Shown piece after piece: positions 5,006-64,000 of a stretch of DNA of 64,000 bases. This DNA comes from Escherichia phage vB_EcoM-172859UKE1. The DNA lies in the sequence record MZ234025.1. The stretch is one strand, 5' to 3'. Position 1 is the stretch's first letter, and every line of letters starts with the position of its first letter. The notes below the pieces were generated by a model that was not told the DNA's origin, made no database searches, and saw only the letters and a program-made list of their open reading frames with translations. The translations under genes were made by a program, and so were the position numbers.

Positions 5006-5785
5006 ATGGCTTTTACAGTTGATATAACTCCTAAAACACCTACTGGAGTTATAGATCAGACTCAGCAGTTTACTGCTACACCCAGTGGTCAAACTGGAGA
5101 TGGACCTATTACATATGCTTGGACTGTAGATGATGTTCCACAAGATGGAGCTGAAGCAACTTTTAGTTATGTACTAAAAGGACCTGCCGGTCAAAAGACT
5201 ATTAAAGTAGTTGCAACAAACCCAGTCCTAGACGCTGAAGCTGAAACAGCAGAAGCTACTACAACTATCACAGTTCAAAATAAGACACAAACGACCACCT
5301 TAGCTGTAACTCCTAATAGCCCTGACGCTGGAGTAATTGGAACAGCTATTGAATTTACTGCTACTTTAGCTTCGCAGCCATCGGGCGCAAACGCTACTTA
5401 TCAATGGTATGTAGATGATTCTCCTGTGGGCGAAGCAACTAACGCTACGTTCAATTACACTCCTGCCGAAAGCGGGGTAAAAAGAATTAAGTGTGTGGCT
5501 CAAGTAACTGCGACAGATTATGATGCACTAAGCGTTACTTCTAATGAAGTATCACTGACTGTTAATAAAAAGACACAGACAACTACTTTGGCAGTAACTC
5601 CCGATAGTCCTTCAGCTGGAGTAATTGGAACCCCAGTTCAATTTACTGCTGCCTTAGCTTCTCAACCAGTTGGAGCGTCTGCTACGTATCAGTGGTATGT
5701 AGATGATTCACAAGTTGGTGGAGAAACTAACTCTACATTTAGCTATACTCCAACTACAAGTGGAGTTAAAAAATTAAATGCGTAG
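5006..5785 (+). CDS. hoc: Hoc outer capsid protein, N-terminal part (Ig-like domains 1-3), ended by a frameshift
   Basis: Tandem Ig-like repeats (TQTTTLAVTP...YQWYVDD...); frame ends at TAG 5783-5785 after an A6 run; continues in another frame (see 5863..6423). Confidence 0.8.
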   Translation: MAFTVDITPKTPTGVIDQTQQFTATPSGQTGDGPITYAWTVDDVPQDGAEATFSYVLKGPAGQKTIKVVATNPVLDAEAETAEATTTITVQNKTQTTTLAVTPNSPDAGVIGTAIEFTATLASQPSGANATYQWYVDDSPVGEATNATFNYTPAESGVKRIKCVAQVTATDYDALSVTSNEVSLTVNKKTQTTTLAVTPDSPSAGVIGTPVQFTAALASQPVGASATYQWYVDDSQVGGETNSTFSYTPTTSGVKKLNA

Positions 5786-5859
5786 CCCAAGTAACCGCGG
5801 CAGATTATGATGCAAAGGAAGTTACTTCTAATGAAGTATCATTAACGGTTAATAAGAAG
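5281..5859 (+). repeat. Tandem direct repeat (2 x ~289 bp) encoding duplicated Hoc Ig-like domains
   Basis: Copy 1 about 5281-5570 and copy 2 about 5571-5859 align at the nucleotide level at most positions (identity not computed). Confidence 0.8.
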
Positions 5860-5862
5860 ACA

Positions 5863-9437: not shown

Positions 9438-9467
9438 GTTTACAACGTATTTGGTATGTGATACTAT
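9438..9467 (+). promoter_or_regulatory. Early sigma70-type promoter (GTTTAC -35, TGaTACTAT -10)
   Basis: GTTTAC at 9438-9443, 18-nt spacer, TACTAT at 9462-9467; same cassette as at 45750-45813. Confidence 0.55.
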
Positions 9468-9503
9468 AGACTTATCAACTACAGAGGAGTAAACAAAATG
9501 ACT
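9462..9503 (+). repeat. 42-bp promoter/RBS cassette, exact copy of 45772..45813
   Basis: tactatagacttatcaactacagaggagtaaacaaaatgact occurs identically at both loci. Confidence 0.85.
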
Positions 9504-9767
9504 AAAGCACGTTTCTTACGAGATACTTTAAAAGTTCTGGAAGCTGAAGCAGTTAAGTTAGTAGAAAAATATGGTGCAAAAGTTAATGGTAATGCCTTCA
9601 ACAAAGTATGGATGAAAGTTGATTCTGAAGCTCGAGCTAAAGGTTATTGGGCCACTGATAAACTTGCATCATTCAAAAACAAAGACGGTTCTCCAGCATA
9701 TGTCCAAGAAGGTATGCCTAATTGGCAAAATATTTTGAAAACTTACATCGAAATTGCACAGAAATAA
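9498..9767 (+). CDS. Hypothetical protein (89 aa) inserted between genes 24 and 23 on the opposite strand
   Basis: ORF with GAGGAG SD; MTKARFLRDTLKVLEAE...; own early-type promoter; no recognisable domain. Confidence 0.65.
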   Translation: MTKARFLRDTLKVLEAEAVKLVEKYGAKVNGNAFNKVWMKVDSEARAKGYWATDKLASFKNKDGSPAYVQEGMPNWQNILKTYIEIAQK

Positions 9768-41896: not shown

Positions 41897-41926
41897 GTTT
41901 ACATAAGGATGATGGTGTGTTACTAT
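41897..41926 (+). promoter_or_regulatory. Early promoter with embedded inverted repeat
   Basis: GTTTAC at 41897-41902, 18-nt spacer, TACTAT at 41921-41926; inverted repeat GGATGAT/ATCATCC flanks the -10. Confidence 0.6.
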
Positions 41927-41960
41927 CATCCTATCAAATAAACAACCTCAAGGAAATAAA

Positions 41961-42248
41961 ATGAAAACTTATCAAGAGTTTATATCACCTATTGCTAACG
42001 TTTCTACTCTGACCGAAGCAACCCTTACTTCCGAAGTTATTAAAGCAAATAAAGGACGTGAGGGTAAACCAATGATTAGTCTGGCTGACGGCGAAGAAGT
42101 AAAAGGTACTGTTTACTTAGGGGATGGATGGTCTGCTAAGAAAGACGGCGCTACTATTGTTATCTCTCCGGCTGAAGAGACCGCACTGTTTAAAGCTAAG
42201 CATATTTCTGTAGCTCAGCTTAAAATTATTGCAAAAACTCTTCTGTAA
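41961..42248 (+). CDS. ipI: Internal protein I-like (capsid-targeted, DNA co-injected)
   Basis: 95 aa (length of T4 IPI precursor); N-terminal capsid targeting sequence MKTYQEFI...LTE; position after 57B. Confidence 0.65.
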   Translation: MKTYQEFISPIANVSTLTEATLTSEVIKANKGREGKPMISLADGEEVKGTVYLGDGWSAKKDGATIVISPAEETALFKAKHISVAQLKIIAKTLL

Positions 42249-42251
42249 GTA

Positions 42252-42281
42252 GTTTACACGCTGATAGGACTATGTTATAGT
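42252..42281 (+). promoter_or_regulatory. Early promoter within palindromic cassette
   Basis: GTTTAC at 42252-42257, 18-nt spacer, TGtTATAGT; lies in the 28-bp palindrome GATAGGACTAtgttatagTAGTCCTATC. Confidence 0.6.
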
Positions 42282-42290
42282 AGTCCTATC
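42263..42290 (+). repeat. 28-bp palindromic promoter element (copy 1 of 4)
   Basis: Identical to 49071..49098 and 61235..61262; one mismatch at 50635..50662; truncated copy at 45981..46000. Confidence 0.85.
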
Positions 42291-42318
42291 AAAACAAATG
42301 AGTAAATGGAGAAATAAA

Positions 42319-42504
42319 ATGAAACGCGCTGAACTGATTCGTAATGTTGCTGTAGTAATTGCTTCAATGGCTTTTAGTTTTTCGATGTTTGTAGGATTCA
42401 TTTGTGGACTACTGACAACAACTGAAAACTCTAACTCATTGGTAGTAGCATTTCTAATCGGCTTAATCGCTATCGTTATGGATAAAATTGCAAAAGGTGA
42501 GTAA
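42319..42504 (+). CDS. Small membrane protein (61 aa, two predicted TM helices)
   Basis: ATG 42319 preceded by GGAG; hydrophobic segments VAVVIASMAFSFSMFVGFICGLL and LVVAFLIGLIAIVM. Confidence 0.55.
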   Translation: MKRAELIRNVAVVIASMAFSFSMFVGFICGLLTTTENSNSLVVAFLIGLIAIVMDKIAKGE

Positions 42505-43754: not shown

Positions 43755-43829
43755 GGCCCTGTAGCTCAATGGGAGAGCTGTCAGCTCATAACTGATAGGT
43801 AGCTGGATCGAAACCAGCCAGGGTCACCA
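43755..43829 (+). tRNA. tRNA-Met (anticodon CAT; could be initiator, elongator or lysidine-modified Ile2)
   Basis: Hand-folded cloverleaf: 7-bp acceptor stem, D arm GCTC/GAGC, anticodon loop CTCATAA, T arm GCTGG/CCAGC, encoded CCA; T-loop ATCGAAA is atypical. Confidence 0.75.
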
Positions 43830-43832
43830 ATC

Positions 43833-43909
<77 letters not shown>

Positions 43910-44273: not shown

Positions 44274-44583
44274 AAGCCGGGTCGCTACCGGCAAGTCGTC
44301 GGACTGATGTTCCCTGAGTAAGGACTGGTCTTAATAAATCTTTACGATTTGTTAATATCCCCTTACATCACAGCAGAAACGGCGCACCGAATTATCGATT
44401 CGAGGAAATATCTTTGCCGTAAGCCGAGTAGCGTTTTTGACGGAACGTTCGGATATGGTCGAGATATGGCCTTTTAAAAATATTGAGTAGCGTCAACTGC
44501 TTAATAACCGGGTTCGAATCCCGGCGTTTCGTACAAACACTTGCCTTAGCAGGTGGAACCCCGACAAGGTTGCCGCAAGGCTT
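44274..44583 (+). ncRNA. Candidate stable noncoding RNA region next to the tRNA genes
   Basis: About 310 nt without a credible ORF, GC-richer than surroundings, tRNA-like T-arm CCGGG-TTCGAAT-CCCGG at 44508-44524, ends at a strong terminator; analogous to T4 stable RNAs by position. Confidence 0.3.
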
Positions 44584-44612
44584 AGCCCCTTCCGAAAGGT
44601 CGGGGCTTTTTG
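44584..44612 (+). terminator. Rho-independent terminator
   Basis: AGCCCC...GGGGCT hairpin followed by TTTTT; near-identical copy at 60733. Confidence 0.7.
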
Positions 44613-44656
44613 GCATAATAATAAATAGATAAGTTAATTAACTTAGGAAAAGCAAC

Positions 44657-45121: not shown

Positions 45122-45126
45122 TAGAA

Positions 45127-45155
45127 TGCCCCTTCCTTATGGTTGGGGCCTTTTG
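45127..45155 (+). terminator. Rho-independent terminator
   Basis: GCCCC...GGGGC hairpin followed by a T-rich run. Confidence 0.6.
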
Positions 45156-45187
45156 GTATCTAGGGCATAAAAATATTTCATAAAGAT

Positions 45188-45216
45188 GTTTACTTCTTCT
45201 AAGGACATGATACTAT
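45188..45216 (+). promoter_or_regulatory. Early promoter
   Basis: GTTTAC at 45188-45193, 17-nt spacer, TACTAT at 45211-45216. Confidence 0.55.
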
Positions 45217-45244
45217 AGACTTATCAACCATAGAGGAAAATGTT

Positions 45245-45748
45245 ATGAGTCTTTACACTGAACTGAATAAAAAATCTGAAGAATCTGCTGAAACTATTTT
45301 TAAAAACGTGCAAAAGCGTATTTTGGAAAAGATGTATGATGCAGCATCTAAAGGTGAAAAATCTTGCCGGTTTCCGATGAGGTGTTCTTCTGATTTATGC
45401 GCAAATACTATTGAATGGCTGGAAAGTGAAGGTCTTACGGTAGAGAAAAACCCGGCGACTTCTATTGACGGCGAATCATATATTAGTATTTCTTGGGATA
45501 AATCAAGGGTAGAAGAGAAAGATGGTGATTGGGTTGTAGATGTTAAAACTTCTGATGGTGGACGTTCTGTTGAAGTTTCGGCTGTAGTTAAAGGTACCCA
45601 CGAACAAAGGACTTGGGGTTGGGGTGGTGAAGAAAAAGAAATTGTTCTTAGTGTGATTGCCAGGTCAACTAGTAATAAAATTGCACAAAGCATCATTGAC
45701 GCTGCAATTGCTGAAGCAGAAAAAATTTGCAAAATTAAAAATAAATGA
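45245..45748 (+). CDS. Hypothetical protein (167 aa)
   Basis: ORF following promoter and GAGGAA SD. Confidence 0.55.
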   Translation: MSLYTELNKKSEESAETIFKNVQKRILEKMYDAASKGEKSCRFPMRCSSDLCANTIEWLESEGLTVEKNPATSIDGESYISISWDKSRVEEKDGDWVVDVKTSDGGRSVEVSAVVKGTHEQRTWGWGGEEKEIVLSVIARSTSNKIAQSIIDAAIAEAEKICKIKNK

Positions 45749-45749
45749 T

Positions 45750-45777
45750 GTACAAACGCCAAGGATGGTGGTACTAT
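45750..45777 (+). promoter_or_regulatory. Early promoter (weaker -35 GTACAA)
   Basis: -10 TACTAT at 45772-45777 inside the 42-bp cassette duplicated at 9462. Confidence 0.45.
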
Positions 45778-45813
45778 AGACTTATCAACTACAGAGGAGT
45801 AAACAAAATGACT
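45772..45813 (+). repeat. 42-bp promoter/RBS cassette, exact copy of 9462..9503
   Basis: Identical sequence including -10, GAGGAG SD and ATG ACT. Confidence 0.85.
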
Positions 45814-45972
45814 ACTTTAATTATTTGGTTCGATGAAAATGAAGAAACATACTGTGTGAATATTGGTGAAAGTCCAATGCCTGAATTTGAATCCTCGGAT
45901 AAAAACTCTGTTGTATCTTGGGCTGAAGGTTATAAAGCAGCTAAAGGTGACGTTGAAATAATTTACATCTAA
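45808..45972 (+). CDS. Hypothetical small protein (54 aa)
   Basis: ATG 45808 after GAGGAG SD within the duplicated cassette; the ORF-track start at 45745 spans the promoter. Confidence 0.5.
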   Translation: MTTLIIWFDENEETYCVNIGESPMPEFESSDKNSVVSWAEGYKAAKGDVEIIYI

Positions 45973-45990
45973 GTAAGTTTATGTTATAGT
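45961..45990 (+). promoter_or_regulatory. Early promoter (truncated palindromic cassette)
   Basis: ATTTAC at 45961-45966, 18-nt spacer, TATAGT at 45985-45990; only the right arm of the palindrome is present. Confidence 0.45.
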
Positions 45991-46018
45991 AGTCCTATCA
46001 AATCAAGAGGAAAACAAA

Positions 46019-46246
46019 ATGGCTAAAGTTAGTATTGATGTCGTTGATTATGAATACACAGAAGAAGTTATTCGCAACCGCCACCCTGAAGTTCGTATCG
46101 ATTCAGTCCAAGATTCCAAGTTCTGGACAACTGAGCTTAATCTGAGTGGTCCTTATGAAGCTGTTAAGAAGTTCATGGTTGAAGAATACTGCGAAGGCAT
46201 GCACCCCGAAGACGCCAAGTTTTATGTCAATTTGATTAAAAAATAA
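46019..46246 (+). CDS. Hypothetical protein (75 aa)
   Basis: ORF after AGAGGAAAA SD. Confidence 0.5.
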   Translation: MAKVSIDVVDYEYTEEVIRNRHPEVRIDSVQDSKFWTTELNLSGPYEAVKKFMVEEYCEGMHPEDAKFYVNLIKK

Positions 46247-46275
46247 TTTACAAACTCTTGAGAGCAGAGTATAAT
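46246..46275 (+). promoter_or_regulatory. Promoter with -10 TATAAT in the loop of an inverted repeat
   Basis: ATTTAC at 46246-46251, 18-nt spacer, TATAAT at 46270-46275; arms GAGAGCA/TGCTCTC. Confidence 0.5.
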
Positions 46276-46316
46276 GCTCTCGTTGGATAATAAACCACCA
46301 ATTGAAAGGTAATAAT

Positions 46317-46910
46317 ATGAACACACTGAAGAAACTTGTTGAATTCATCCGCACTAAACTTGGTACTGCTATGGCTAAAAATCTGACTGTCGAAGAACAG
46401 TATAACGCAGCTGCAGATAAGTTGATTACCCAAATCAAAGAACTAAAAACGGCTTCTGTTAAATCTATTAATGAAGAAAAACGTATTCGCGAACTTGTTA
46501 ATGAAAAGAACAAACAAGCCGCTTCTAAGGAACGTGAAATTCGTAAGCTCTTGGCTGAAGGACAAGATGTTACCATGCATGCTAAGCTTGGTCTTCTGTA
46601 TCGTCGAACTGCCGAACAACTTAATACAAAAGCTGACGGGTATGCCGCTATGCGAATTGAAATTGCTCGTAAGGTGGTTGAACTTGATGATGCTCGTCAG
46701 AATCTGGCAATCAAACTCGAATACATTCGTGAAACTCGAGCAGCCAACGCCCTTGGTATCTCTACGGCTGATGATGTAATTGAAATCGCTGCACTGACTA
46801 AGGTTGATATCGAAGACACTCTGACTCGTGTTGAAACGTTCAATGGCACTCCAGCCGGCGTCGAAACCACTTCTGCTGATGTACAAGAATATATTAACTC
46901 TTTGAAATAA
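46317..46910 (+). CDS. Coiled-coil protein, possibly PspA/IM30-like (197 aa)
   Basis: ATG 46317 (the ORF-track TTG start at 46302 is unlikely); long heptad-rich helices; PspA resemblance is by eye only. Confidence 0.5.
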
Positions 46911-49059: not shown

Positions 49060-49089
49060 GTTTACAATAAGATAGGACTATGTTATAGT
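49060..49089 (+). promoter_or_regulatory. Early promoter within palindromic cassette
   Basis: GTTTAC at 49060-49065, TGtTATAGT -10; exact 28-bp palindrome copy at 49071-49098. Confidence 0.6.
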
Positions 49090-49117
49090 AGTCCTATCAA
49101 ATTAAATGGAGTCCGCA

Positions 49118-49357
49118 ATGATTTATTACGAAAGTATCGGAACCAAAGTGATTGGTAAAACCATTACTCGTGAAAAGTTTGCAAAGATATTCGATATGCG
49201 TTATAAAAAATCTGAACACAAAGGCATCCGATTCGAAGATGCGCACTGTACAATTTGCCCTTATAATGAAGACATAAATGGTACAATCGTTCCATTGGTA
49301 GAGGCTTCACATGATGACCTCTGGGATGAATATAATATCGCATGTCGTGAAATTTAA
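49118..49357 (+). CDS. Hypothetical protein (79 aa)
   Basis: ATG 49118 after GGAG; the ATG at 49106 lies within the conserved AAATGGAG cassette. Confidence 0.5.
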   Translation: MIYYESIGTKVIGKTITREKFAKIFDMRYKKSEHKGIRFEDAHCTICPYNEDINGTIVPLVEASHDDLWDEYNIACREI

Positions 49358-50354: not shown

Positions 50355-50384
50355 GTTTACAAGGTCTGTAGTTGTTGATACTAT
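50355..50384 (+). promoter_or_regulatory. Early promoter with inverted repeat
   Basis: GTTTAC at 50355-50360, 18-nt spacer, TACTAT at 50379-50384; arms AGGTCTGTAG/CTATAGACCT. Confidence 0.6.
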
Positions 50385-50422
50385 AGACCTATCAAAACAA
50401 ATGAGTGAATGGAGATATAAAA

Positions 50423-50623
50423 ATGACTACTTTGAATAAACGTTTCGGTAAAGCTAAACCTGGTTGTGCAGCAGAACGTCGTTATGTTTTCGCTCAGTTA
50501 GAAGATGTAGAGTATCAGATTAATCAAGTTCACATTACTGGTATCGAGCCTATGTGTGGCCTTGAAGCTCTTCGTGAAGTTCGTGATGGGTATCGTCGTG
50601 ACATCGAAGAAATGTCAAAATAA
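50423..50623 (+). CDS. Hypothetical small protein (66 aa)
   Basis: ATG 50423 after GGAG within the conserved RBS cassette. Confidence 0.5.
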   Translation: MTTLNKRFGKAKPGCAAERRYVFAQLEDVEYQINQVHITGIEPMCGLEALREVRDGYRRDIEEMSK

Positions 50624-50624
50624 G

Positions 50625-50653
50625 TGTACAAACTGATAGGGCTATGTTATAGT
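50625..50653 (+). promoter_or_regulatory. Early promoter within palindromic cassette
   Basis: GTGTAC -35, TATAGT -10; 28-bp palindrome with one mismatch at 50635-50662. Confidence 0.55.
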
Positions 50654-50679
50654 AGTCCTATCAACTTGAGGAGAATATT

Positions 50680-50985
50680 ATGAAATTAACAGAAACCAAC
50701 CGAATCGGTCTTTTTACAATATTTGCATCGCTTTTTTACGCAGCTCTTTCTGTTGCAGTATTACAAAAGGCTTACGATATGGATGGTGTTCCTGGTTGTA
50801 TATTTTTATCACCGTTTTTATTATTCGTCGGAGCTTTGATATTATATGCCACGTCCGGTTTAGACCATAATGTCTGGGTCAATTATAAACGTAAATTGTC
50901 CGAAGAAGAACACGCAGAAGCTCGTAAAAAAGCTATTGAATCTACCAATCTAGAAAATTTCATTAAAGAATGTCGAGGAAAATAA
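50680..50985 (+). CDS. Membrane protein, ENFIKECR family
   Basis: 101 aa; two hydrophobic segments; C-terminus ...STNLENFIKECRGK. Confidence 0.55.
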   Translation: MKLTETNRIGLFTIFASLFYAALSVAVLQKAYDMDGVPGCIFLSPFLLFVGALILYATSGLDHNVWVNYKRKLSEEEHAEARKKAIESTNLENFIKECRGK

Positions 50986-53647: not shown

Positions 53648-53677
53648 GTTTACTTCCTCCAAGAGTTTTGATACTAT
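53648..53677 (+). promoter_or_regulatory. Early promoter with inverted repeat whose right arm contains the SD
   Basis: GTTTAC at 53648-53653, 18-nt spacer, TACTAT at 53672-53677; arms TTCCTCCAAG/CTTGGAGGAA. Confidence 0.6.
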
Positions 53678-53704
53678 ACATTCATCAACTACTTGGAGGA
53701 AATT

Positions 53705-54118
53705 ATGACCCGTATCAATTTAACACTTGTTTCTGAACTGGCCGACCAACATCTTATGGCTGAGTATCGTGAATTACCTCGTGTATTCGGTGCAGTCCGT
53801 AAACATGTCCAAAACGGTAAACGTGTAAAAGATTTTAAAATCTCTCCAACATTTATCTTAGGCACAGGTCACGTAACATTCTTTTACGACAAACTCGAAT
53901 TTTTACGTTTACGACAAATCGAGCTAATCGCTGAATGTTTGAAACGTGGTTTCAAAATCAAGGACACGACAGTCCAGGATATTTCCGACATCCCTGCCGA
54001 ATTTCGTAATAATTATGTCCCGTCCGAAGCGTCCATTGCGATAAGTCAAGCACGCTTAGATGAAAAAATTGCTCAACGTCCGACTTGGTACAAATACTAT
54101 GGTAAATCAATTTACTAA
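53705..54118 (+). CDS. denV: Endonuclease V (pyrimidine dimer DNA glycosylase) DenV
   Basis: 137 aa from ATG 53705; matches recalled T4 endonuclease V ([34 protein letters not shown]...). Confidence 0.95.
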
Positions 54119-54124
54119 GGAAAA

Positions 54125-54241
54125 ATGAAAATGTATCAAGAATTTATCATTGAAGCAGATGCCAAAGGTCCTAAAGTAGATGTTGACGATATTGGATACG
54201 ATTTTAACAACTTCGGAATTATTTCTGGCGGTAAAGCTTAA
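54125..54241 (+). CDS. Mini internal-protein-like peptide with CTS (38 aa)
   Basis: MKMYQEFIIEADAKG...; AAGGAAAA SD; below the ORF-track cutoff. Confidence 0.4.
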   Translation: MKMYQEFIIEADAKGPKVDVDDIGYDFNNFGIISGGKA

Positions 54242-54244
54242 ATT

Positions 54245-54274
54245 GTTTACGCTTAAGTATTAATATGGTATAAT
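54245..54274 (+). promoter_or_regulatory. Early promoter (near-consensus)
   Basis: GTTTAC at 54245-54250, 18-nt spacer, TGgTATAAT at 54266-54274. Confidence 0.65.
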
Positions 54275-54304
54275 TACTCTATCAAAACAAACAAGGAAAC
54301 AAAA

Positions 54305-54619
54305 ATGAAAACGTATAAAGAATTTATTGCAGAATCCGCCAACCAACGCGTTGAAGGCGGTTATATTTGGATTGAACAAGTTGAACCACCGAGCCGCACT
54401 TCTACAGGTAAATGGAAAATTACTGTTGATGGTCCTGGTGGTAAACGTAGGACCCTTAAAGAAATTAATGGGTACTATGAAGAAGCTCTTTCGGATGCAG
54501 GAACTTACATGATGCAAATCATGATTAAAAACCCTGAAAACCGTTTTGCAGCTAAAGTCTTCCGTCGCATCGGTAATAAACTTTATGATGCATACTCTAA
54601 AAACTTCCCTAAAGAATAA
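54305..54619 (+). CDS. Internal-protein-like protein with CTS (104 aa)
   Basis: N-terminus MKTYKEFIAE. Confidence 0.6.
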   Translation: MKTYKEFIAESANQRVEGGYIWIEQVEPPSRTSTGKWKITVDGPGGKRRTLKEINGYYEEALSDAGTYMMQIMIKNPENRFAAKVFRRIGNKLYDAYSKNFPKE

Positions 54620-54644
54620 CATAAATTAAAACAATAGGAACAAA

Positions 54645-54974
54645 ATGAAAACGTATCAAGAGTTTATCACTGAAGTTACATTATCTGCGGAACAGAAAGC
54701 TGCTATCGAAGAAGGTAAAAATCCCAAAGTAACATATAAAGTAAATAGTAAAGGCGTTTTTGATGGTTTGGTTCAAGACCCTGAATTGAAAAAAGCTCTT
54801 TCTAAAACTAATGCGTACTTTGCTCCTAAATTTAACACAGCCGGTGTACTTATTGGATTGGATGTATTCAACTCTAAAGGTGTTCTATCTAGTGCCTTTG
54901 GTTATGCCGCTAACAAAATTACCAAAGCTGCATGGGAATCCAATACCAAACAAGCTCAAAAGCCTAGAGTATAA
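54645..54974 (+). CDS. Internal-protein-like protein with CTS (109 aa)
   Basis: N-terminus MKTYQEFITE. Confidence 0.6.
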   Translation: MKTYQEFITEVTLSAEQKAAIEEGKNPKVTYKVNSKGVFDGLVQDPELKKALSKTNAYFAPKFNTAGVLIGLDVFNSKGVLSSAFGYAANKITKAAWESNTKQAQKPRV

Positions 54975-56820: not shown

Positions 56821-57119
56821 TGGCTCAAATCCTATCAGGCTTTGGAACTCATTATGAAGCATCTCGACGCATAACTGAAAGCAATCCTTTTGGCCTTGTT
56901 CCGAAGCACAAGAAAATTCAAAGCCTTGATGACTTTGAGAATCGCTTATGGGCCCTCTTTAATGAGTACAAGGCATATCTGAAAGAAGACGCTGACGATT
57001 GTCTTGAAGAAGATGAGATTGCGTATTACGAACAACGCCTTGAACAGCTCAAGAACTTCCACCAGGTTCGTGACGAAGTATCTAAAGCAGTTAAAAAGTT
57101 AATTCCTTTCAAAGAGTAG
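56820..57119 (+). CDS. Hypothetical protein (99 aa)
   Basis: ATG 56820 after AGAGGA SD; the ORF-track start at 56778 is less likely. Confidence 0.5.
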
Positions 57120-57147
57120 TTTACTTCTCCTCTAGTTGTGTTACTAT
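57119..57147 (+). promoter_or_regulatory. Early promoter with 14-bp inverted repeat whose right arm contains the SD
   Basis: GTTTAC at 57119-57124, 17-nt spacer, TACTAT at 57142-57147; arms TTCTCCTCTAGTTG (57125-57138) / CAACTAGAGGAGAA (57156-57169). Confidence 0.65.
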
Positions 57148-57175
57148 AGACCTGTCAACTAGAGGAGAAATCAAA

Positions 57176-57634
57176 ATGACTATCAATTCAGACGTTTTTA
57201 TCCGCCGTAATAAACTCCGTCGAATCTTTGAAACGGAGTTCCGCAAAATAAATGCCAGTATAAAAGATGCTGCAAAGTCTCTTGGACTACCAGGCTTTCA
57301 TATCAAGTATTCTCAACATCTCTTAGATCGTGCCATCCAGAGAGAAATAGATGAGAATTACGTTTTTGAATTATTTCGTAAAGTAAAAAATCATGTTAAA
57401 GAAGTTGCAGAATTTTTATCAATGCCGGCACGTCCAGATGTTGATGAAGATTTTGTCGAAGGTGTCGAATATCGCCCAGGCCGTTTAGAAATAACTGATG
57501 GAAATCTTTGGTTAGGACTTACAGTTTGTCGCGAAAATCCGGCATTCAAAATGAAGACTCTTCAATGCAGAATGGCTATTATTAACAATAAACGACTACC
57601 AGGAAAAGCTTCTAAAGCAGTGATTAAAATCTAG
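57176..57634 (+). CDS. regB: RegB site-specific endoribonuclease
   Basis: 152 aa; matches recalled T4 RegB (MTIN..VFIRRNKLRR...YSQHLLDRAIQREIDE...GKASKAVIK). Confidence 0.9.
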   Translation: MTINSDVFIRRNKLRRIFETEFRKINASIKDAAKSLGLPGFHIKYSQHLLDRAIQREIDENYVFELFRKVKNHVKEVAEFLSMPARPDVDEDFVEGVEYRPGRLEITDGNLWLGLTVCRENPAFKMKTLQCRMAIINNKRLPGKASKAVIKI

Positions 57635-60726: not shown

Positions 60727-60732
60727 TTTAAT

Positions 60733-60761
60733 AGCCCCTTCCGAAAGGTTGGGGCTTTTTG
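60733..60761 (+). terminator. Rho-independent terminator (copy of the 44584 element)
   Basis: AGCCCC-ttccgaaaggtt-GGGGCT followed by TTTTT. Confidence 0.7.
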
Positions 60762-60771
60762 GCATTTAGCA

Positions 60772-60800
60772 GTTTACTTTTCCTCAGGTTGTGTTATAGT
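60772..60800 (+). promoter_or_regulatory. Early promoter
   Basis: GTTTAC at 60772-60777, 17-nt spacer, TGtTATAGT. Confidence 0.6.
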
Positions 60801-60827
60801 AGACCTTACTTACTAGAGGAGAACGTT

Positions 60828-61007
60828 ATGTCACGTAAAGAAAAAATTTCTAAGTTAATGTTTTTGATTGAAGAGTACGCTAATGCGGTATCTGATTGGG
60901 AAAATGCTCATGGTTGCGAAGATGGAGACATCGACATTAACAGAGCTATGAAAAAGATGGCCGATACGCACACCGAATTGCAAATGTATGTTAACGAGAT
61001 TATGTGA
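60828..61007 (+). CDS. Hypothetical protein (59 aa)
   Basis: ATG 60828 after GAGGAGAA SD; the ORF-track start at 60759 spans terminator and promoter. Confidence 0.45.
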   Translation: MSRKEKISKLMFLIEEYANAVSDWENAHGCEDGDIDINRAMKKMADTHTELQMYVNEIM

Positions 61008-61014
61008 GGATATT

Positions 61015-61224
61015 ATGCTTTACGATTATACTGGAAAATCTGAAGACGGTGTACTTGAACTTTTACCTGAAAGCGCTGAAGATGACGATATGACGACGGT
61101 GATGTTTTGTAAAAATGGCCCTGGGGATAAGGGATGGATTTATCTTCGTCAAGAAAATGACTTAATTGTTTTGGACCCTAAACAAGTTGAAGAACTTTAT
61201 CAACATTTAAAACACAATCGGTAG
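61015..61224 (+). CDS. Hypothetical acidic protein (69 aa)
   Basis: ATG 61015 after GAGGA SD. Confidence 0.45.
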   Translation: MLYDYTGKSEDGVLELLPESAEDDDMTTVMFCKNGPGDKGWIYLRQENDLIVLDPKQVEELYQHLKHNR

Positions 61225-61253
61225 TTTACAACTTGATAGGACTATGTTATAGT
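61224..61253 (+). promoter_or_regulatory. Early promoter within palindromic cassette
   Basis: GTTTAC at 61224-61229, TGtTATAGT -10; exact 28-bp palindrome copy at 61235-61262. Confidence 0.6.
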
Positions 61254-61281
61254 AGTCCTATCAAAACGAACGGAGAACAAA

Positions 61282-61392
61282 ATGAAACTTTTGCTTATCG
61301 CTTATGTTGTAGTACAATACAATTATCCGATGTTTACTTATAACATGGTAAACGGCATAGTGAATCTTATTGAAACGAGTATGGTAAAATGA
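61282..61392 (+). CDS. Small hydrophobic peptide (36 aa)
   Basis: MKLLLIAYVVVQYNYPMF...; CGGAG SD; ATGA-coupled to the next ORF. Confidence 0.35.
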   Translation: MKLLLIAYVVVQYNYPMFTYNMVNGIVNLIETSMVK

Positions 61393-63933: not shown

Positions 63934-63962
63934 GTGTACATGCTTTTAGGATATGTTATTAT
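63934..63962 (+). promoter_or_regulatory. Early promoter at window end
   Basis: GTGTAC -35, TGtTATTAT -10, followed by the conserved AAATGAGTAAAT.GGAGAA RBS cassette; gene lies beyond the window. Confidence 0.45.
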
Positions 63963-64000
63963 AGACCTATCGAAACGAAATGAGTAAATTGGAGAATAAA

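Follow-up and report, generated by a model that had tools for sequence, protein, structure and literature searches.

Why does the −10 element of a phage promoter lie in the loop of an inverted repeat, and why does this arrangement recur from one gene junction to the next? The question is posed by positions 42252–42321 of a 64,000-nucleotide stretch of DNA from Escherichia phage vB_EcoM-172859UKE1 (MZ234025.1; the whole stretch is hereafter the window), between ipI, whose stop codon occupies 42246–42248, and a trna.4 homologue that begins with the ATG at 42319. A first-pass annotation had flagged this segment as one of a series of cassettes, each made up of a promoter, a stem-loop and a ribosome binding site (RBS). 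We consider it probable that these are composite regulatory cassettes in which an early promoter, a hairpin of read-through RNA and a stretch of portable homology are combined. At the DNA level, each cassette would comprise an A/T-rich region, GTTTAC, a spacer of 17–18 nt, TGn, a −10 element, a conserved CTATCAA start, a short 5′ untranslated region (UTR) and a Shine–Dalgarno (SD) sequence of the GGAG type, followed by one small accessory gene. At the RNA level, the left arm within the spacer would be complementary to sequence 3′ of the −10, and the hairpin would exist in read-through RNA only. Finally, 30–60 bp of near-identical sequence at many gene junctions would provide portable homology, allowing single genes to be inserted, deleted or swapped while promoter and RBS are kept.

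A T4-type early promoter and its inverted repeat

All cassette features described here lie on the + strand. At the flagged locus, a UP-element-like stretch of 72% A+T (42227–42251), which holds the ipI stop codon, precedes a GTTTAC −35 element of the T4 early-promoter type (42252–42257), an 18-nt spacer and the extended −10 TGtTATAGT (42273–42281, with TGt at 42273–42275 and TATAGT at 42276–42281); the segment 42252–42281 matches the T4-type early-promoter pattern (GTTTAC, a 17- to 18-nt spacer, TGn and a TAnnnT hexamer) exactly. The left hairpin arm, TGATAGGACTAT (42262–42273, core 42263–42272), sits in the promoter spacer upstream of the predicted start, the extended −10 supplies the loop and the closing pairs, and the right arm, GTAGTCCTATCA (42280–42291), spans −6 to +4 relative to a predicted +1 at the A at 42288, a position set by its spacing from the −10. 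Folded as + strand RNA, the hairpin has a 12-bp stem, a free energy of −17.7 kcal/mol and a z score of −6.9. The 5′ UTR and start (42291–42321) consist of the module AAAACAAATGAGTAAATGGAGAAATAAA, with its SD GGAG at 42308–42311, and the trna.4-homologue ATG at 42319–42321. An upstream start codon at 42298, in frame with trna.4, was considered and rejected: the same module at 50394 has that ATG out of frame. The module is common to 42291–42318, 50394–50421 and 63973–64000, each time with GGAG in an A-rich context, the type of site at which the RegB endoribonuclease reportedly cuts early mRNAs.

The first-pass annotation had reported an identical 28-bp palindrome with the −10 in its loop, and GATAGGACTAtgttatagTAGTCCTATC is indeed present without change at 42263–42290, 49071–49098 and 61235–61262. 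The copy said to carry one mismatch is likewise found, at 50635–50662, and the truncated copy placed at 45981 belongs to the cassette at 45961, which retains the loop and the right arm and has no left arm. All copies are on the + strand, and none is expected by chance (100 shuffles). The promoter architecture that these sites were said to share also stands: GTTTACN{14,15}TGNTAYWRT matches 11 sites, all on the + strand, against 0.02 expected, and five further sites have one mismatch in the −35 (ATGTAC at 45748, ATTTAC at 45961 and 46246, GTGTAC at 50624 and 63934). One site of the promoter pattern (48172) falls within the 3′ end of a gene. The window total is 17 cassettes, 15 of them within 41.9–64 kb (the 57B-to-nrdC region); cassettes are all on the + strand and directly upstream of an SD and an ATG, and the 25 nt 5′ of the −35 average 74% A+T over the 17 versus 62% for the window. 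Because a generic σ70 scan of the window shows no enrichment (80 sites against 65.6 ± 8.7 expected), it is the T4-specific architecture that stands out. A stem of at least 8 bp is present in 11 of the 17 cassettes. A mobile element akin to a miniature inverted-repeat transposable element was rejected as an explanation for the palindrome, which never occurs outside the promoter frame and whose loop is the −10 and right arm the conserved start region. A full-text literature search with the palindrome sequence returned unrelated primer matches only.

The phage is evidently a Mosigvirus, that is, an RB69-like member of the Tevenvirinae: between 41 and 51 kb the window is 97.6% identical to Escherichia phage mobillu over its full length and ~97% identical to APCEc01, MM02 and others. 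This relationship gives access to the early-promoter list of RB69, which holds 58 sites (57 according to the text of the paper; Nolan et al. 2006). On it are orthologues of 15 window cassettes, the flagged one included: Pe:77187 corresponds to 41897, Pe:76459 to the flagged site, Pe:69254 to 49060, Pe:67959 to 50624, Pe:64934 to 53648 (denV), Pe:61376 to 57119 (regB), Pe:58138 to 60772 and Pe:57689 to 61224, and several more cassettes match other Pe sites. According to Uzan and Miller 2010 (PMC3014915), regB of T4 has a typical early promoter. The predicted start, the A of CTATCAA 7 nt 3′ of the −10, agrees with the C-rich −3 to −1 region of RB69 promoters (Nolan et al. 2006). From consensus and orthology we infer that the cassettes are strong σ70 early promoters of the T4 type. 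A literature search for genome-wide mapping of T4 start sites found none that was usable, and the annotations of NBG1 and ATK47 place the label "promoter" on the frd.3/e.6 cassette only, leaving the flagged cassette unlabelled.

Pairing between the spacer and downstream sequence

Is the hairpin an accident of one palindrome or a property of these promoters? In the whole mobillu genome, the longest spacer-to-downstream helix of the 43 promoters passing our filter averages 8.07 bp, compared with 5.75 ± 0.16 bp for shuffled spacers (maximum 6.16 in 200 trials) and 6.08 bp for chimeras that join the spacer of one promoter to the downstream region of another. In T4, whose RefSeq record carries no promoter features, a pattern scan of 40–80 kb yielded 17 promoters with a mean helix of 8.94 bp versus 5.95 ± 0.29 bp. 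Compared with the window, the arms in T4 are of unrelated sequence: the promoter in the 57B–ipI spacer (T4 73939), orthologous to the 41897 cassette, has the arms TGATGAGGTA/TACCTCATCA, denV has TCTCCTGTAG/CTACAGGAGA and regB a 15-bp helix, while a 14-bp repeat is found in the ipIII–ipII spacer (T4 65799) and a 15-bp repeat at T4 57990.

The register of pairing is shared as well. For 76 distinct promoters with 18-nt spacers, drawn from seven genomes, aligned without gaps and read in a single register (11–21/30–40), 64.2% of cells are paired versus 57.0 ± 1.0% in shuffles and the covariation score is 0.313 versus 0.215, values that none of 500 shuffles reached, although the 76 promoters are related sequences and these shuffle figures are not probabilities. 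Sliding the partner by 1–3 columns lowers pairing to 32–49%, and cells altered on both sides number 94 against 52 expected, ~1.8 times the shuffled figure. The slid controls and the unrelated T4 arms support the pairing conclusion alongside the shuffles of related sequences. An exact IMG/VR search with the loop and right arm returned only 7 loci, too few for an unbiased test of arm variation, and GenBank relatives were used. By these comparisons, the spacer–downstream stem is a general and apparently selected property of these early promoters, and its pairing is seemingly conserved in register, without conservation of sequence, between T4 and RB69-type phages.

The stems fall into two classes. 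In the −10 class, the right arm starts 0–7 nt from the start of the −10 hexamer and the loop is the −10. Besides the flagged cassette it includes those at 41897–41963 upstream of ipI, with AGGATGATGGTG/TACTATCATCCT (41906–41917/41921–41932) around the −10; at 46246–46319 upstream of e.6, with GAGAGC/GCTCTC (46259–46266/46275–46282) around the −10 and mobillu paralogues with GGAGC/GCTCC and GAGAGA/TCTCTC; at 49060–49120 upstream of an RB69ORF135c-like gene and at 61224–61284, both with the exact palindrome; at 50355–50425, with AGGTCTGTAGT/ACTATAGACCT (50362–50372/50380–50390, one G·U pair); and at 50624–50682, with a GTGTAC −35 and one G·U pair in its palindrome. In the SD class, the right arm contains the SD and ends 3–7 nt before the ATG, and loops of 17–30 nt cover the entire −10 and start region. 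Here belong the cassettes at 45188–45247, upstream of an RB69ORF146c-like gene (arms 45194–45201/45231–45238); at 53648–53707, upstream of denV (TTCCTCCAAG at 53654–53663, CTTGGAGGAA at 53692–53701); at 57119–57178, upstream of regB (a perfect 14-bp repeat, 57125–57138/57156–57169); and at 60772–60830, upstream of mobD.2a (60778–60785/60816–60823). Inverted repeats with the SD in their right arm had been listed at three places; those at 53654/53692 (10 bp) and 57125/57156 (14 bp) are of this kind, but the one at 46259/46275 encloses the −10, its SD lying near 46306. Stems are absent or insignificant at 45748–45810, upstream of a 54-aa open reading frame (ORF) and with the weak −35 ATGTAC, and at 54245–54307, upstream of an internal-protein-like gene. 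The cassette with loop and right arm only (45961–46021) belongs to frd.3, and the one upstream of nrdC.10 (63934–64000, −35 GTGTAC) ends at the window edge.

With the predicted start 3′ of the left arm, both arms are present only in RNA that enters from upstream, and only such RNA can fold the hairpin. Partition-function folding puts the probability that the SD of SD-class cassettes is unpaired at 0.00 in read-through RNA and at 0.43–0.60 in promoter-initiated RNA (0.43 at 45188, 0.52 at 53648 and 0.57 at 57119, each 0.00 in read-through RNA). At the flagged site the corresponding values are 0.88 and 0.89: the hairpin forms and the SD stays accessible. The suggestion that the cassettes recall T4 gene e, where read-through transcripts sequester the RBS and promoter-initiated ones do not, is thus borne out in folding at 45188, 53648, 57119 and 60772, where the SD is paired in read-through RNA only, and fails at the flagged site, where it is open in both. 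We posit that read-through RNA of the SD class would be translationally silent and the gene expressed solely from its own early promoter, which would amount to the logic of T4 gene e moved to early promoters. For regB, this prediction fits what is known of its synthesis, which is tightly limited, with the early promoter off within 2–3 min and the gene's own SD a RegB target (Uzan and Miller 2010, PMC3014915). In the −10 class, by comparison, a hairpin of about −17 kcal/mol would stand ~15 nt past the upstream stop codon with the SD free; most likely, if speculatively, it protects the upstream cistron, together with the A/U-rich sequence of the promoter, against RNases, or weakly attenuates read-through.

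The stem-loops might instead terminate or attenuate transcription that comes in from the upstream gene, making the cassette an insulated terminator and promoter unit, as the authors who described promoter-early stem-loops (PeSLs) in RB49 proposed. In a construct with lacZ behind a promoter, insertion of one RB49 PeSL stem-loop between the two lowered expression to about the extent that rrnB T1 did (Arbiol et al. 2010, PMC2839356), and the hairpins here are placed right behind an upstream stop codon; RNA processing or translational effects would, however, lower lacZ equally. On the + strand no U-tract follows the cassette hairpins, whose tails are A-rich (AAAACAAA), and a + strand terminator scan called no cassette. 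The flagged hairpin has this tail and only 4 G-C pairs among its 10 core pairs, unlike the GC-rich stem and U-tract of an intrinsic terminator; the stems generally are AU-rich, unlike the polyG/polyC stems of RB49, and SD-class loops of 17–30 nt do not resemble those of a terminator. Real GC-rich terminators with U-tracts exist elsewhere in the window, in a four-copy family of terminator-like hairpins, GCCCCTTCCGAAAGGTCGGGGCTTTTT, at 2471–2504, 44583–44616, 45126–45159 and 60732–60765 (the 44583 and 60732 copies are 97% identical). Two hairpins of this family, at 45126 and 60732, sit directly 5′ of the cassettes at 45188 and 60772, the layout of T4/PST PeSLs, in which the stem-loop lies just upstream of the promoter. 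The cassette hairpins themselves are evidently not canonical intrinsic terminators; lacking a U-tract, they do not simply inherit the terminator or attenuator role of the GC-rich RB49 stem-loop, and we regard that role, a rival reading for the −10 class, as unlikely here.

Several observations bear on the strand at which the stem acts. Among 48 distinct helices read on the + strand, 15 internal G·U pairs stand against 2 A·C (p = 0.002, for helices that are phylogenetically non-independent), under a search criterion that handled both mismatches equally; a rough tally of independent mismatch events gives 13 G·U and 2 A·C. RNA folding is 2–7 kcal/mol better on the + strand than on the − strand, with −17.7 versus −15.7 kcal/mol at 42252, −17.1 versus −10.5 at 50624, −15.5 versus −10.3 at 50355 and −15.4 versus −10.1 at 41897. 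One pair at 61224 reads A-U in the window; its counterpart is G·U in mobillu, and ATK47 has G-C there. The covariation, these stepwise A-U/G·U/G-C changes and the G·U excess suggest selection on a + sense RNA. Read-through RNA is the obvious candidate for the selected single strand, the non-template DNA strand being a formal alternative.

Cassettes at the boundaries of accessory genes

The early-gene block in which nearly all of these elements lie runs on the + strand from ~40.4 kb to 64 kb and is the classic hyperplastic region of T-even phages. With gene names transferred from annotated relatives, its order is gene 1, 57A, 57B, ipI, trna.4–trna.2, tRNAs, frd.3, e.6–e.2, nudE, e and denV, followed by further internal-protein (IP) genes, vs.x, regB, vs, tk, rI, mobD.x and nrdC.x. 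In the mobillu annotation (MN850622.1, 64.2–78.5 kb), many unrelated small genes are called "endoribonuclease" or "thioredoxin"; these untrustworthy names look like a carry-over from the neighbouring regB and nrdC in source databases.

A comparison of 41.8–64 kb with ATK47, Shf125875, AV111, ST2 and mobillu revealed 16 distinct rearrangements in all. (The ST2 record, OM982647.1, is assigned to Guernseyvirinae; Kagunavirus in its taxonomy line, yet the sequence runs colinear with the Mosigvirus window at ~96% identity, and the record appears to be misclassified.) Where gene presence and absence are compared, as the first-pass annotation had suggested doing, cassettes mark some of the boundaries: in three single-ORF differences, two adjacent cassettes have crossed over at matching positions. 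The 72-aa ORF at 50423–50623 is missing in Shf125875, AV111 and ST2, where one chimeric cassette remains with its junction at the −35 hexamers of the 50355 and 50624 cassettes (50361/50624). ATK47 lacks the 54-aa ORF at 45808–45971, and here the 45748 and 45961 cassettes are joined within their CTATCAA boxes (45814/45982). ATK47 and Shf125875 have an extra Ip7 gene inserted at 42308–42324, in the UTR of the flagged cassette and with cassettes on both sides; the annotators of ATK47 record a "43 bp direct repeat" at this insertion. RB69 carries an extra IP gene, also bounded by cassettes, between 57B and ipI, and the window, RB69 and ATK47 differ from one another by IP-gene cassettes. In addition, a block replaced in AV111 and ST2 has its right edge exactly at the −35 of the regB cassette (57119), and ST2 has a 1134-bp insertion at the 45188 cassette that brings in a different palindrome, GGGCTCAT/ATGAGCCC; alternative cassettes at the same slots bear this palindrome or GATAGGGTA/TACCCTATC. 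As this comparison with relatives shows, cassettes serve as portable homology for single-gene exchange.

The cassettes are the window's dominant dispersed repeats, a mosaic in which upstream/−35, hairpin/−10 and UTR modules are variously combined, and T4 is documented to recombine at microhomologies of 6–10 bp. An isolated cassette in the late-gene region (9438–9500), without a significant stem, has a 47-nt module from the −10 to ATGACTA (9458–9504) that is 98% identical (46 of 47 nt) to 45768–45814, 36 kb away, although the downstream genes are unrelated; such sharing suggests exchange of cassettes over long distances. Other observations concern neighbouring repeats and rearrangements. Around the tRNA genes (43760–43906), tRNA content varies among relatives: an additional tRNA-Asn is present in AV111 and ST2, and an 874-bp insertion in AV111, with breakpoints away from promoter cassettes. 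The SD and N-terminal coding sequence of IP type (MKTYQEFI...), as is usual for internal proteins of T-even phages, is repeated at 41945–41990, 54109–54154, 54289–54334 and 54629–54674, and the array of IP-like genes at 54.1–55.1 kb, including a short and possibly truncated ORF (54125–54241), is the stretch most rearranged among the relatives compared. A ~288-bp tandem repeat with 73–82% identity at 5270–5862, within a large outer capsid (hoc-like) gene, presumably represents repeated protein domains.

Could the palindrome act as duplex DNA, as an operator bound by a dimeric protein of phage or host, for instance one that turns early promoters off, or as a cruciform or recombination signal for a structure-specific nuclease? 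Its 28 bp are identical at three loci even though the 5 nt between −35 and palindrome vary, as do the UTRs; it overlaps the −10, where a repressor would act; the mechanism that shuts off T4 early promoters is reported as unknown (Hinton 2010; PMC3014915); and breakpoints do occur at cassettes. However, the identity is largely explained by a loop that is the extended −10, a right arm that is the conserved start region and a left arm complementary to that right arm, and the arms vary widely among promoters and among T4/RB69-type orthologues while complementarity is kept, a pattern that speaks against a single operator recognised by its sequence. G·U and A·C would also be penalised alike in a cruciform or duplex site, in conflict with the strand asymmetry of 15 to 2, and the crossovers fall at the −35, in CTATCAA or in the UTR, not at the stem base or loop. 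We judge a duplex-DNA role to be quite improbable. That the stems have no function at all, but arose because the promoter consensus is partly complementary to itself, and were spread among cassettes by duplication and gene conversion, can be all but set aside: right arm and loop do follow the promoter consensus, the 45961 cassette without a left arm and six stemless ones still look like good promoters, and exchange of segments among cassettes is clear, but shuffled-spacer and chimera controls fall far below the observed pairing, T4 promoters with unrelated arms keep the same register, double-sided changes exceed the shuffled number, compensation at 61224 is stepwise, and alternative cassettes at the same slots carry other palindromes.

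The composite reading, an early promoter joined to a read-through hairpin and to portable homology, has its own difficulties, and the following points weigh against it. Breakpoint ends lie inside cassettes in 8 of 32 cases (12 are within 21 nt), and with cassettes making up 5.8% of the region this gives p = 4e-4; under an arithmetical gene-junction null, however, with a cassette at ~27% of junctions, cassettes should be touched by about half of the events, and this is what is seen. Enrichment over gene junctions generally is thus not clear and largely vanishes, and it is the homologous geometry of the junctions, rather than their number, that provides the positive evidence. No meaningful stem is found in 6 of the 17 window cassettes, so that the hairpin is neither universal nor needed for promoter function. 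In RB69, the orthologous copy of the flagged hairpin is interrupted by an internal A·C mismatch, and a strand bias of mutation (C to T on the non-template strand), apart from the relatedness of the helices, could account for part of the G·U excess. The cassette start sites are assigned from −10 spacing, and the function of the flagged hairpin class is inferred.

With these reservations, a wider role can be envisaged. Early-promoter hairpins, their register kept from T4 to RB69-type phages, might form a general RNA-level insulation system of T-even phages that either silences a downstream SD or caps an upstream cistron, an idea that we regard as possible rather than probable. If true, insulation would confine regB and denV to the first minutes of infection and could help explain the rapid fall in early-protein synthesis after early promoters switch off, which is still unexplained. 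The cassettes are, in addition, the joints at which small accessory genes are swapped in T4-type phages, including those for injected internal proteins, which recent work identifies as inhibitors of host Type IV restriction enzymes. Because a gene between two cassettes carries its own promoter and RBS, knowing the joints should aid both the reading of phage pangenomes and the engineering of therapeutic phages.

Relation to known promoters and stem-loops

Each part of the cassette has a counterpart in T4-type phages. Descriptions of their early promoters (Hinton 2010; Nolan et al. 2006) share with the cassettes the GTTTAC −35, TGn and the −10, with A-rich sequence upstream and C-rich positions −3 to −1; they differ in describing no hairpins, and inverted repeats go unmentioned in the RB69 list (Nolan et al. 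2006), whereas Hinton 2010 has just "additional regions of consensus" whose meaning is unknown. The SD class finds its parallel in T4 e, soc, 49 and I-TevI (PMC3014915), in which a 5′ arm upstream of the internal-promoter start pairs with a 3′ arm over the SD, so that long transcripts are silent and promoter-initiated ones translatable, as folding predicts for the SD class. In those cases, late or middle internal promoters delay expression, whereas in the SD-class cassettes the promoter is early and, by prediction, expression would be restricted to the early period; the likeness does not extend to the flagged site.

The resemblance to PeSLs that had been noted at the outset is well supported, as the architecture fits the sequence-level definition of Arbiol et al. 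2010 (PMC2839356): in an intergenic unit, an early promoter with AT-rich sequence upstream is combined with a stem-loop, an SD and a start codon, and the hairpin most often occupies the −35 to −10 interval or overlaps the −10. Like the cassettes, the PeSLs of RB49 and phi1 are composite intergenic units with the stem-loop in the same positions and G-T pairs noted in the stems, cluster in hyperplastic regions beside small accessory ORFs and, by recombination of flanking elements, give rise to single-ORF indels between close relatives (PMC2839356). They differ in promoter type, with near-perfect TTGACA/TATAAT and polyG/polyC stems in RB49 against GTTTAC and AU-rich stems here, and in the evidence at hand: terminator activity and mini-circles were shown experimentally for RB49, while the cassettes are known from sequence and bear no terminator signature. 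RB69-type phages are not mentioned by Arbiol et al. 2010 (PMC2839356).

Closer relatives are found within the phage group itself. Analogous elements at T-even internal-protein loci, with T4 early promoters and AT-rich stems, were described by Repoila et al. 1994, as recounted in PMC2839356, and PeSLs have been reported in T4/PST (Comeau et al. 2014, PMC4122927). Both belong to the same group of phages, and the flagged site lies in the same ipI locus; as far as that account of the earlier work goes, these elements also share with the cassettes T4 early promoters of the form TTTACW-N17-TAYWAT, weaker AT-rich stems and a proposed part in the shuffling of IP genes. The T4/PST stem-loops lie just upstream of the promoter (PMC4122927), whereas here, and in our T4 scan, the spacer pairs with the +1 region or the SD. 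In the literature that we searched, which did not include Repoila et al. 1994 or the 2003 T4 review, no account was found of spacer–start or spacer–SD pairing, its register or a G·U bias, and we claim no priority for them. The cassettes are PeSL-like elements of a known kind, with a promoter part already predicted in RB69, and to that picture we make modest additions: pairing conserved in register, a mismatch pattern that points to + sense RNA, the division into SD-masking and SD-free classes, and hypotheses on how genes such as regB could be confined to the early period.

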